From: an uncultured Alphaproteobacteria bacterium
GTDB taxonomy: Bacteria > Pseudomonadota > Alphaproteobacteria > SP197
Assembly: GCA_958295695.1 (NCBI GenBank)
Contig: OY282363.1
Coordinates: 1,113,156 to 1,177,155 of the forward strand
Length of the DNA: 64,000 nt
Reading direction: 5' to 3'
Each line of letters starts with the position of its first letter. Positions within the stretch are counted from its first letter, which is position 1. Below, piece after piece: positions 11,842 to 13,811 of this stretch. Under the pieces are notes generated by a model, which made no database searches, had not been told where the DNA came from, and worked only from the letters and a program-made list of their open reading frames with translations. The translations under genes were made by a program, and so were the position numbers.

Positions 11842-12873
11842 ATGTCCGAATCCGTTATCCGCTGCCGGTCCCTCTACAAGATCTTCGGTCTCAACCCGGC
11901 GGAACTGCGCATCGACGGCGATGGCGCGGTCGAGCCGGCTCTGCTCAAGCGCGAAGGCGTGGTGGCCGCGGTCAACCATGTCGACCTGGATGTCAGCCCC
12001 GGCGAGATCCTGGTCGTGATGGGCCTGTCCGGGTCGGGCAAGTCGACCCTCGTGCGCTGCCTCTCCCGGCTGGTCGAGCCGTCGTGCGGCCTCGTGGAGA
12101 TCGAGGGCGCCGACCTGCTCGCGATGAACGACCGGGAGCTCATCGAGCTCAGGCGCAGCAAGATGGGCATGGTGTTCCAGAACTTCGCCCTGCTGCCGCA
12201 CCGCACGGCGCTGGAGAACATCGCCTTCCCGCTCCAGATGCGGGGCATGAAGCGCCGCGACTACGTGGAGCGGGCGCGCAAGATGATCGCGCTGGTCGGT
12301 CTCGAGGGGCGGGAGAACAACTTTCCCCGCGCGCTCTCCGGCGGCCAGCAGCAGCGGGTCGGGATCGCGCGGTCGCTGGCGGTCGAACCCGACATCTGGT
12401 TCCTCGACGAGCCGTTCTCCGCGCTCGACCCGCTCATCCGCAAGGAGATGCAGGACGAGTTCCTGCGCCTCCAGTCGCTGCTCAACAAGACCATCGTGTT
12501 CATCACCCACGATTTCGACGAGGCGCTCCGGCTCGCGGACCGCATCGCCATCATGTTCAACGGCCGGATCGAGCAGATCGGCAAGCCCGAGGACATCGTG
12601 CTCCATCCGGCGACCGACTACGTGGCGCGGTTCACCGGCGACGTGCCGCGCGAGCGCGTGTTGCGGGTCGGATCGGTCATGGACCCCCCGAGCGACGAGG
12701 AAACCACGACCGACAGGCCCGTCAGGGTCACCGACCGGATCGACACCGTCGCCGAATACGTGCTGGGGCAGCAACTGCCGGTGCCGGTGATCGACGCCGA
12801 GGACGCCGTGGTCGGAGTCATGCACCAGGCGCATGTCCTGGAAGTGCTGTTCTCCCGGACCGAGCGCGCCTGA
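11842..12873 (+). CDS. ProV/OpuAA-type ABC transporter ATP-binding protein with C-terminal CBS domain (glycine betaine/proline type), orphan
   Basis: Walker A GLSGSGKST, signature LSGGQQQRVGIARSL, Walker B IWFLDEPFSALD. The N-terminus MSESVIRCRSLYKIFG is typical of ProV. The C-terminal ~80 aa is CBS-like. No ProW or ProX follows. Confidence 0.85.
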   Translation: MSESVIRCRSLYKIFGLNPAELRIDGDGAVEPALLKREGVVAAVNHVDLDVSPGEILVVMGLSGSGKSTLVRCLSRLVEPSCGLVEIEGADLLAMNDRELIELRRSKMGMVFQNFALLPHRTALENIAFPLQMRGMKRRDYVERARKMIALVGLEGRENNFPRALSGGQQQRVGIARSLAVEPDIWFLDEPFSALDPLIRKEMQDEFLRLQSLLNKTIVFITHDFDEALRLADRIAIMFNGRIEQIGKPEDIVLHPATDYVARFTGDVPRERVLRVGSVMDPPSDEETTTDRPVRVTDRIDTVAEYVLGQQLPVPVIDAEDAVVGVMHQAHVLEVLFSRTERA

Positions 12874-12890
12874 CCGCGGCGCCAGCGGCC

Positions 12891-13811
12891 GTGAAAGACC
12901 TCCTTCTCCACGGCTTGCCCCCGGAACGCCGGTTGAGAGGATGCGTGTGGCTCGGCGCGTTCATCGCCGCGCCGGTCCTGGCCAAGGCCGCGGGCGTGCC
13001 GCCGGACTCGGTGGACGAGCTTCCCCTCGTCGCCTTCGTCCTGGCGGTGTTCGTCCTTCTCCCGGTCACCGCGCCCGACCGCCGCGCCCAGCTTCCGCGG
13101 CTCCGCGCCACGGCCGGCAACATCGCGAACCCGCGTCACCGCCCCCGCGAGGCCGCGCGGGGCTTCGTGTCGCCCAAACGCGCGGTCTACGCCGTCATCC
13201 TGTTCCTTCTCGCCACCTACGTCTGGACCTACCAATCGATCGAGTCGGAGATCGGGGTCCTGCTGGAGGCGCACGAGATCGAGGGCGTCAGGGTGGAAAG
13301 CCTCGTCATGCCCTACACCGCCTTCTTCCGCTCCGGCTACGTGGCCGACGCCGGATTCTCGAAAACGAAGCCGCGGACGCGCGCGGACATCTCCGTGACG
13401 GGACGGCCGTGGTCGGGCCTGGACGTGCGCATTTCGGAAATCGAGCTCGCCAAGGTCAACAAGATCGTCGGCAAGACCTTCGAGTTCTCCTTTCTCACCG
13501 ACGTCGAAGTCCTCAGGCCCGCGATCCGCAAGCACATGGCGCGGCTCGTGGACCACAAGCAGATCGACGCCTTCGAGATCGAGACCTTCGACAACCGTGG
13601 GCCGTACGTCCCGGTCGTTCTGAGCGAGAAGAACCGGAGCGGGGACGCCGCCGCCGTGGCGAGGGAAATCGCCGAAAGCCTCTACACCAACCTCGCCAAG
13701 GTCAACGAACTCAAGGTCAACCGGGTCATCGTCAAGGCCGTCGACCCGGACCTCTACGTCGGCGGCGGACGGATCAGGGTGCTGGGCCGGGGCACGGCCG
13801 GGCGGTCCTGA
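12891..13811 (+). CDS. hypothetical membrane protein (3 predicted TM helices plus ~200 aa soluble domain), co-operonic with the ProV-like ATPase
   Basis: GTG start 18 bp after the proV stop. TM segments CVWLGAFIAAPVLAKAAG, LPLVAFVLAVFVLLPVTAP, VYAVILFLLATYVWTYQSI. No ABC permease EAA motif. I do not recognise the soluble domain. Confidence 0.45.
   Translation: MKDLLLHGLPPERRLRGCVWLGAFIAAPVLAKAAGVPPDSVDELPLVAFVLAVFVLLPVTAPDRRAQLPRLRATAGNIANPRHRPREAARGFVSPKRAVYAVILFLLATYVWTYQSIESEIGVLLEAHEIEGVRVESLVMPYTAFFRSGYVADAGFSKTKPRTRADISVTGRPWSGLDVRISEIELAKVNKIVGKTFEFSFLTDVEVLRPAIRKHMARLVDHKQIDAFEIETFDNRGPYVPVVLSEKNRSGDAAAVAREIAESLYTNLAKVNELKVNRVIVKAVDPDLYVGGGRIRVLGRGTAGRS

Follow-up and report, generated by a model that had tools for sequence, protein, structure and literature searches.

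The locus contains a complete gene for an ABC ATPase, tmoV, which has kept its place between the remnants of a binding-protein gene, tmoX, and a permease gene, tmoW; the tmoW remnant is fused to most of a gene that in relatives encodes a 270-aa protein. In coordinates of the window (the entire 64-kb stretch of DNA that was analyzed), the features are the following:

10390–11450 (approximate), no strand assigned: low-GC island, recognized by composition (GC 0.22–0.55 against a background of ~0.72)
11451–11729, + strand: 3′ remnant of tmoX, encoding residues 227–319 of an OpuAC-family, TMAO-type binding protein, from tblastn, HMM, and PDB matches
11753–11792, + strand: inverted repeat in the tmoX-tmoV spacer, perfect over 16 bp in a repeat search, with a 17-bp stem in the fold
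11842–12873, + strand: tmoV, full-length gene for a ProV-subfamily ABC ATPase of 343 aa with an ATG start, from TIGR01186, identity to homologues, and conserved columns
12891–13028, + strand: 5′ remnant of tmoW, codons 1–46 (cytoplasmic N terminus and TM1), from tblastn, HMM, and N-terminal alignment
13020–13028, + strand: deletion junction at the 9-bp sequence CTTCCCCTC, from alignments to L008 (tmoW side) and to L009 and L022 (270-aa side)
13020–13811, + strand: 270-aa gene, codons 8–270 and stop, in frame with the tmoW remnant, from identity to L001 and L006

The original prediction of a bona fide ProV/OpuAA-type ATPase at 11842 was borne out. The tmoV product scores 330.1 bits against NCBIfam TIGR01186 (cut-off 326.6), which places it in that subfamily on a match to profile positions 2–246 of 363, the nucleotide-binding domain only; it also matches Pfam ABC_tran (8e-33), and its best PDB match is OpuAA (7AHC, E = 2.6e-79). 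It falls below the equivalog cut-offs for both ProV (278 against 444) and ChoV (306 against 484). The Walker A motif (GLSGSGKST), signature (LSGGQQQRV), Walker B motif (IWFLDEPFSALD), and H-loop (ITHD) can all be read in the translation. The protein is 85% identical over 342 aa to the ATPases of two intact loci (L001 and L006) and is changed at 0 of the 146 columns that are at least 97% conserved among 110 homologues, a lack of degeneration that is also compatible with continued use. The CBS tail that had been read into the C terminus did not hold up: the last 83 aa have no Pfam CBS match even at E ≤ 10, and alignment of the tail to the CBS region of OpuAA scores 3.6 bits. Two homologues show one CBS match each in this tail, at 17.3 and 16.6 bits, below the cut-off of 24. 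At most, this tail of ~70 aa holds one degenerate CBS-like motif, not a tandem CBS (Bateman) module.

To the left of tmoV, only the last 93 codons of tmoX are present, out of the 319 that encode the intact protein. The remnant has no start codon, carries CAA where homologues have their stop, and stays open beyond that position. It is 67–69% identical to the substrate-binding proteins (SBPs) of L001 and L006 over residues 227–319 (tblastn, E = 2e-37 and 6e-39), the TmoX HMM matches the window at positions 227–318 (E = 6e-38), and the match to PDB 4XZ6 (TmoX) covers residues 245–330 (E = 4e-20). Its truncated end adjoins the right edge of the low-GC island, which does lie immediately upstream, as had been noted. 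The island contains one ORF (10327/10390–11232) with only a weak TPR-like match (Pfam TPR_27, E = 7e-4, under the cut-off). The spacer between tmoX and tmoV has a folding energy of −68.5 kcal/mol (z = −3.4), and comparably strong hairpins are found in this spacer in four intact loci (L001, L011, L016, and L018). A scan of 11000–14000 for promoters (sigma-70 consensus only) and terminators gave nothing beyond shuffled expectation.

The ORF that follows tmoV runs from a GTG at 12891 to a stop at 13811 (306 aa) in another frame than tmoV; a second ORF close behind the ATPase gene had been predicted correctly, but the gap is 17 nt and not 18. The GTG occupies the native start position of tmoW, as judged from N-terminal alignment with L001, L022, and L008. 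The tmoW part is 61–62% identical to residues 5–46 of the L001 and L006 permeases (tblastn), and the TmoW HMM matches the window at positions 2–46 only. The remainder is 69% identical to residues 8–269 of the 270-aa proteins of the same two loci (tblastn, E about 1e-118 to 1e-121) and keeps all invariant columns; native residues 1–7 are replaced by the 46 TmoW residues. The junction sequence CTTCCCCTC is present here in one copy, whereas relatives have one copy in tmoW codons 44–46 and another in codons 6–8 of the 270-aa gene. Blastn alignments break at 13027/13028 from the left and at 13020/13021 from the right, and the nearest relatives that define the junction are 99% (L008), 88% (L022), and 82% (L009) identical to the window in nucleotide sequence. 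The deleted interval is ~1.9 kb as measured in L022, or 1916 bp by subtraction of blastn coordinates.

This ORF had been described as a three-TM protein with a soluble domain of ~200 aa. The topology stands, with hydrophobic segments at residues 18–36, ~40–62, and 98–114 followed by a soluble part of ~190 aa, but the protein is a chimera and not a native one: its three TM helices are the first helix of TmoW and the two native helices of the 270-aa protein. Nor does it belong to a recognized ABC permease family. Searches of Pfam and NCBIfam returned no match at E ≤ 1, the ORF has neither a BPD_transp_1 domain with an EAA loop nor 5–6 or more TM helices, and only its first 46 residues come from a BPD_transp_1 permease. 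The fusion is predicted to be topologically compatible, with TmoW TM1 running in-to-out and the 270-aa protein beginning outside, and the in-frame chimera could still be made and inserted. Its 270-aa part is changed at 13 of 115 conserved columns; the intact nearest relative (P0002) is changed at 15.

Elsewhere the operon is intact. The order tmoX, tmoV, tmoW, 270-aa gene occurs in all 11 independent loci with enough left flank (L001, L006, L011, and L013–L020), where tmoX encodes 319 aa, tmoV 344–350 aa, and tmoW 670 aa and the gap between tmoW and the 270-aa gene is 0–12 nt. L023 has tmoV, tmoW, and the 270-aa gene in this order, and in L009 and L012 the 3′ end of tmoW is followed by the 270-aa gene. 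In each of the 12 other loci in which the ATPase gene is seen, the 670-aa permease lies between it and the 270-aa gene, so the pair seen in the window is not conserved in other genomes. Intact TmoW is a single polypeptide with two BPD_transp_1 halves (residues ~226–362 and ~495–658, E = 2.9e-42). Since L022 and L023 both have tmoV, tmoW, and the 270-aa gene without an adjacent tmoX, a missing neighboring binding-protein gene is not in itself proof of inactivity.

The neighborhood of the intact operons bears on what was transported. Loci of the Immundisolibacterales type have torT-torS-torR upstream of tmoX, and torT/torS/torR homologues adjoin five intact loci (L001, L006, L011, L013, and L005/L007); L005/L007 and L006 carry the same 270-aa protein. 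An FMO-like (Tmm-like) gene lies 5 kb from the L001 operon, and the L001 SBP matches PDB 4XZ6 with E = 1e-124. TmoX orthology, together with the torTSR (and FMO-like) neighbors in relatives, suggests that TMAO would have been the original substrate.

The sister locus L008, 99% identical to the window, has the island in the identical place and the same tmoX truncation. Its tmoW is broken in another way: residues 5–147 are kept, with an apparent frameshift, and a 1.55-kb RelE/antitoxin insert stands in place of the remaining part of tmoW and of codons 1 to ~68 of the 270-aa gene. Because each locus retains operon sequence that is missing in the other, the two tmoW lesions are separate events, and derivation of the window state from the L008 state, or the reverse, is ruled out. 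Decay is ongoing and independent in two lineages. Between the window and L008, the ATPase gene has 4 synonymous and 1 non-synonymous changes and the remnants have 2 and 11 (Fisher p = 0.022, with only five substitutions on the ATPase side).

We consider it very probable that the locus is what remains, after partial deletion, of an ordinary four-gene ABC importer operon of the TMAO/betaine type, within the OpuA/ProU class. To judge from relatives, the ancestral gene order here would have been tmoX, tmoV, tmoW (encoding the 670-aa double permease), and the gene for the 270-aa membrane-anchored protein. One lesion would have removed the 5′ two thirds of tmoX along with anything upstream. The other would be a ~1.9-kb deletion between the two 9-bp direct repeats, with loss of tmoW codons 47–670 and codons 1–7 of the 270-aa gene; it may have arisen by replication slippage or by microhomology-mediated deletion, as its signature is typical of both. 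Since tmoW and the 270-aa gene are in different frames and the length of the deletion is 3n+2, the in-frame chimeric ORF would have come about by chance. With both permease and binding protein gone, transport by this locus is presumably impossible. The intact state of the ATPase means either that little time has passed since the loss or that drift has not yet set in for the ATPase.

Two readings had been offered originally. That of a betaine transporter remnant is supported by what flanks the ATPase gene, the last 93 TmoX codons on its left and codons 1–46 of its cognate permease gene on its right, and by the full operon of relatives. That of a non-canonical system of an ATPase and a membrane partner fails, because the adjacency exists in this genome only and would be the product of the ~1.9-kb deletion, and the lesion in the sister differs. 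It had also been proposed to look elsewhere for proW and proX. Profile HMMs for TmoW and TmoX, run at maximum sensitivity on the six-frame translation of the whole 64 kb, matched the remnants only; a complete TmoX-type OpuAC binding protein is absent, and the TmoX HMM found no second copy in the window. Megablast of 9000–20000 against the plasmids in PLSDB returned short 70–77% matches to generic ProV and Rieske genes and no syntenic record. By its UreC, the window is nearest to a Rhodospirillaceae MAG (84% identity).

It is also conceivable, but unlikely, that tmoV has been kept because it works as a shared ATPase for an OpuA/ProU-type permease elsewhere in the genome, in which case the locus would still be a remnant. 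The unchanged conserved columns of tmoV, the difference in substitutions between tmoV and the flanking remnants, and the retention of its native start and of the upstream spacer hairpin would all fit such a role, and shared ATPases are known for sugar ABC importers (MsiK and MsmK). However, five substitutions are a weak test, and a very recent deletion explains the pattern equally well. Moreover, there is no other permease of the TmoW type within 64 kb, the scan for the sigma-70 consensus revealed no promoter-like site that would serve tmoV after loss of the upstream operon, and shared ATPases are not known from the OpuA/ProU class.

Far less probable is an assembly artifact, whereby tmoW would be intact in the source organism and the 1.9 kb would have been lost through a collapse or mis-join at the 9-bp repeat. 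The window apparently comes from an environmental genome, and the identical ATPase is on record on a 3.4-Mb contig (NCBI and ENA). However, modern assemblers are not misled by repeats as short as 9 bp, and tmoW is not intact either in an independent assembly of the 99%-identical genome (L008, on a 705-kb contig), which has the same tmoX truncation. Least credible is a genuine two-gene module, with the three-TM protein as membrane partner of the ProV-like ATPase: the ORFs are co-oriented, both open, and separated by only 17 nt, and the topology of the chimera is plausible, but the arrangement is unique to the window genome (12 of 12 other ATPase loci have the 670-aa permease in between), the three-TM form appears to have been born of a deletion at the 9-bp repeat, the sister has tmoW broken differently and the downstream gene truncated too, the chimera keeps 46 TmoW residues and neither of the BPD_transp_1 domains, which in this family should contain the coupling (EAA) loop, the docking site of the ATPase, and the soluble domain would, by prediction, lie in the periplasm and thus on the other side of the membrane from the ATPase.

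If the locus is a partly deleted importer operon, as we favor, the appropriate annotation would be pseudogene fragments of tmoX and tmoW, tmoV as an orphan gene, and a fusion ORF, rather than a new system of ATPase and partner. The case also carries a caution, as an in-frame deletion in 70%-GC DNA can yield a convincing "novel membrane protein." Two sister genomes have two different tmoW lesions, and the loss of a TMAO/quaternary-amine uptake system appears to be under way in this lineage at present. As a whole, this would be the decay of genes for a transporter of a known kind; the only mildly novel item is the uncharacterized 270-aa fourth gene.

Members of the 270-aa family, of which the chimeric copy in the window is a damaged one, have two TM helices, a cytoplasmic loop rich in K and R, and a soluble domain of ~190 aa that is predicted to be two-lobed and α/β and is probably periplasmic. 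The motifs WTYQ, PY.AFF, IETFDNRGPY, and GRG.AG are invariant. Neither the intact protein nor its divergent members gave anything above noise in Pfam or NCBIfam, and an exhaustive HMMER search of 1.84 billion representatives with the family profile gave 31 matches (~8 full-length clusters). The most distant of these, P0135 and P0136, are zinc-ribbon-TM-domain proteins that have only TM2 and the first-lobe region in common with the family, and they offered no clue to its function. The importer clade that carries the gene occurs for the most part in uncultured marine bacteria, several of them of sponge-associated lineages; among culturable carriers are the Roseovarius and Amylibacter relatives (L017–L019). 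In at least 12 divergent loci the gene and tmoW are tightly coupled. The transporter is environmentally important, and the 270-aa protein is a concrete candidate for an accessory subunit of it that is so far unknown. The chances are nearly even that the protein is a previously undescribed fourth, accessory component of the TMAO-type TmoXVW importer clade; one possible role is that of a partner of TmoW or TmoX in the periplasm.

Finally, we compare the locus with known systems. PDB entry 4XZ6 shows the TMAO-bound TmoX of R. pomeroyi, a component of the TMAO-specific importer TmoXWV (PMC8918994). The intact relatives resemble TmoXVW of Ruegeria pomeroyi DSS-3 and SAR11 in having an OpuAC-type SBP, a ProV-type ATPase, and a BPD_transp_1 permease, whereas the window retains a complete ATPase but just 93 residues of the SBP and 46 of the permease. 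The clade differs further in its extra fourth gene, the 270-aa gene, which the cluster legend of PMC8918994 does not name and which L024, a TmoXVW-like locus at a greater distance, lacks. The resemblance to ProU (ProVWX) and OpuA lies in an ATPase that passes the TIGR01186 proV subfamily cut-off and has OpuAA (7AHC) as its closest solved relative and in an SBP of the OpuAC family; unlike those systems, the window ATPase has no tandem CBS module and the relatives' permease is one 670-aa polypeptide. Pseudogenized operons that arise through deletion between short direct repeats are part of general bacterial genome decay. The locus is like them in having kept one copy of a 9-bp repeat, in its truncated neighboring genes, and in the independent lesion of the same gene in a sister lineage, but it differs from the usual case in that the reading frame is preserved and the resulting ORF resembles a bona fide three-TM protein.

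The second of two adjacent ORFs, which the original prediction described as a non-permease three-TM partner of a ProV-type ATPase, is a chimera of TmoW residues 1–46 (cytoplasmic N terminus and TM1) and residues 8–270 of a two-TM protein encoded downstream of tmoW in related operons. What the locus shows is ordinary genome decay, in an uncultured marine alphaproteobacterium, of a transporter of known type. The following features were located, the coding remnants by tblastn against the window using the four proteins each of two related loci, L001 and L006, as queries.

Features of the locus (window coordinates)
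10327/10390–11232: ORF of 280–300 aa within the low-GC island, weak TPR-like match only
10390–11450: low-GC island (composition; GC as low as 0.22, against 72% for the genome), identical in the sister genome L008
11451–11729, + strand: tmoX (binding protein) remnant, residues 227–319 only, 67–69% identity
11753–11792: strong hairpin in the tmoX-tmoV spacer (folding), conserved in relatives and kept here
11842–12873, + strand: ORF 1, ProV-subfamily ABC ATPase (tmoV), 343 aa (Pfam, TIGR01186, PDB, tblastn)
12891 (GTG)–13811, + strand: ORF 2, 306 aa, starting 17 nt past the ATPase stop
12903–13028, + strand: tmoW (permease) remnant, residues 5–46 only
13020–13028, + strand: junction 9-mer CTTCCCCTC (alignments with L008, L009 and L022)
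13020–13805, + strand: residues 8–269 of the 270-aa protein, in the frame of the permease remnant (gene portion to 13811)
13882–20614: EamA transporter, FlK-thioesterase/DsbA fusion, double EctC-cupin protein, Rieske oxygenase and two AstE/AspA-like genes

Since window G+C is ~72%, long spurious ORFs are abundant; ORFs 1 and 2 are nonetheless real coding sequence. ORF 2 has the three hydrophobic segments originally noted, although the gap before it is 17 nt rather than 18, and searches of Pfam and NCBIfam returned no match and hence no recognized permease family. The homologues, a tight family of ~270-aa proteins lacking a Pfam domain, align with it only from query residue 44. Since residues 5–46 of the permease match, GTG 12891 coincides with the native start of the permease and the 270-aa match begins at residue 8, the protein is chimeric.

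In public contigs encoding its homologues, the 270-aa gene always comes fourth and last in a co-oriented set, after a 319-aa binding protein of the OpuAC family, an ABC ATPase (344–350 aa) and a BPD_transp_1 permease (670 aa). By tblastn, this order holds in 11/11 loci with sufficient left flank, and a genome-collection scan found further examples in Immundisolibacterales, other Gammaproteobacteria MAGs, Candidatus Poriferihabitaceae, Roseovarius and Amylibacter. In intact loci the permease gene lies between the two members of the pair originally noted. The two-TM 270-aa gene lies directly 3′ of the 670-aa TmoW gene at L001:10001–10813, L006:10001–10813 and L023:9080–9889, and 3′ of tmoW near 8001–8810 in L011 and L013–L020; coordinates place its start 0–12 nt from the permease stop. 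TmoW in this clade (L001:7986–9998 and equivalents) is a single polypeptide in which residues ~226–362 and ~537–670 share 35% identity, an internal duplication indicating that one fused chain contains both transmembrane halves of the transporter. Two loci (L023:6001–9889 and L022:7981–11454) carry tmoV-tmoW-270 with no upstream binding-protein gene, so tmoX has been lost or is encoded elsewhere in some lineages. In L022, tmoW is interrupted at residue 229/230, possibly through an error in the 2x-coverage assembly. The fourth gene is missing from L024, a more distant TmoXVW-like locus.

How did the chimera form? The window is 99% identical to L008 over 4557–13028 and 13210–20742, 88% identical to L022 and 82% to L009. 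In these alignments, the tmoW side ends at 13027/13028 and the 270-aa side begins at 13020/13021. The 9-mer CTTCCCCTC also occurs in tmoW codons 44–46 of L008 and, in L009 and L022, in codons 6–8 of the 270-aa gene. As a single copy is left at the junction, we infer a deletion between short direct repeats, which would have removed the ~1.9 kb between copies (measured in L022) and fused the tmoW start to the 270-aa gene. Since the two genes do not share a frame in intact loci, a 3n+2 deletion would have joined them in frame by chance.

The ATPase itself is full length relative to its L001 and L006 counterparts (tblastn, 85% identity). As predicted, it is ProV-type: it matches Pfam ABC_tran (8e-33), scores 330.1 bits against TIGR01186 (cut-off 326.6) and has OpuAA (7AHC; E = 2.6e-79, residues 6–293) as its closest solved structure, although it falls short of the ProV and ChoV equivalog cut-offs. 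The CBS tail ascribed to it is weak. Its final 83 residues have no Pfam match at E ≤ 10 and align to the OpuAA CBS region at only 3.6 bits, and the equivalent tail in two homologues gives a single sub-threshold CBS match (~17 bits; cut-off 24). Since the subfamily is 343–350 aa long, the tail is at most one degenerate CBS-like motif, unlike the tandem module of ProV and OpuAA.

All ATPase motifs are present, and 0/146 columns that are ≥97% conserved among 110 homologues are altered. This would mean that the loss is recent or that the ATPase remains in use; the latter, a minor alternative, would make it a shared ATPase serving a permease encoded elsewhere. With filters off, permease and binding-protein profile HMMs against a six-frame translation of the entire 64 kb matched only permease positions 2–46 and binding-protein positions 227–318, both the known remnants; there is no further proW- or proX-type gene in the window. 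Of the two readings that the original prediction offered, the remnant is correct, with tmoX and tmoW fragments around the ATPase of a truncated operon; the non-canonical ATPase/partner system is not.

Decay is also seen in L008, which has the same low-GC island and tmoX truncation. L008 keeps tmoW residues 5–147, apparently frameshifted near residue 104, followed by a 1.55-kb insert in place of the remaining tmoW and of ~68 codons at the start of the 270-aa gene. Within it, L008:8778–10022 carries genes for a toxin of the RelE family (Pfam E = 1.9e-44) and a putative antitoxin of 142 aa, both absent from the window. Since each genome keeps operon sequence missing in the other, the two tmoW lesions are separate events, which would have come after a tmoX loss common to both. 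Between window and L008, the ATPase has 4 synonymous and 1 non-synonymous substitutions and the three remnants 2 and 11 (Fisher p = 0.022). The tmoX remnant contains no start codon and has CAA where homologues have a stop. These observations point the same way, to decay. In the 270-aa part, the nearest intact relative departs from conserved columns as often as the window does.

The low-GC island lies directly upstream, as originally described, and its right edge is the tmoX break-point; neither an integrase nor flanking repeats were seen at the island. A promoter scan found no promoter-like sites at the locus. The spacer hairpin (11–18 bp stem) is present in every locus folded despite differing sequences (L001:6810–6921, L011:4741–4852, L016:4703–4850, L018:4835–4942), is followed 3′ by TGTATCATC in the window, L001 and L011, and may act, downstream of the binding-protein gene, as a stem that stabilizes the mRNA or attenuates transcription. 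On the right, the order 270-aa, EamA, FlK/DsbA recurs in L009, indicating that in the ancestor the tmo operon stood beside this catabolic-looking cluster. At L008:17552–18972, ~1.4 kb of additional sequence that includes an AAA_14/DUF4143 ATPase gene corresponds to ~130 bp at window 20742–20873; at the edge of this sequence, a segment of ~96 nt matches window 29132–29229 and 32172–32267 (82–84% identity), suggesting a dispersed repeat or mobile-element end. The nearest named relative of the window UreC is from a Rhodospirillaceae MAG (84% identity).

The sole lead worth pursuing is the uncharacterized fourth gene of intact operons. Its family has 31 representatives at 50% clustering in 1.84 billion proteins (about 8 full-length clusters), no curated Pfam or NCBIfam entry and the invariant motifs WTYQ, IETFDNRGPY and GRG.AG, and diverges faster than the transporter (42–87% vs 67–94% identity). 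The family N terminus contains no K or R, the inter-helix loop has 7.2 K+R on average and the stretch that follows TM2 is slightly acidic; the TmoW N terminus is basic, with TM1 oriented in-to-out. From this charge pattern, the soluble domain is predicted to be periplasmic in native and chimeric forms alike, and the topology of the chimera is self-consistent. The most distant relatives (P0135 and P0136) are AT-rich, have N-terminal zinc ribbons and a TM helix, and overlap the family only in the C-terminal lobe (family positions 46–161), suggesting that the lobe serves as a reusable extracytoplasmic module.

What did the transporter carry? The binding protein of intact relatives matches PDB 4XZ6, a TmoX structure (E = 1e-124 over 305 residues), as does the tmoX remnant (4XZ6 residues 245–330, E = 4e-20). 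Homologues of torT-torS-torR, described as the TMAO-sensing system of E. coli (PMC13644379), adjoin several intact operons, and an FMO-like (Tmm-like) gene lies nearby in L001. Together, the 4XZ6 match and these neighbors make TMAO the most likely original substrate. TmoXWV is described as a TMAO-specific ABC importer, deletion of whose tmoW abolished growth on TMAO (PMC8918994). In the window, the ATPase alone is complete, with the binding protein and permease reduced to fragments.
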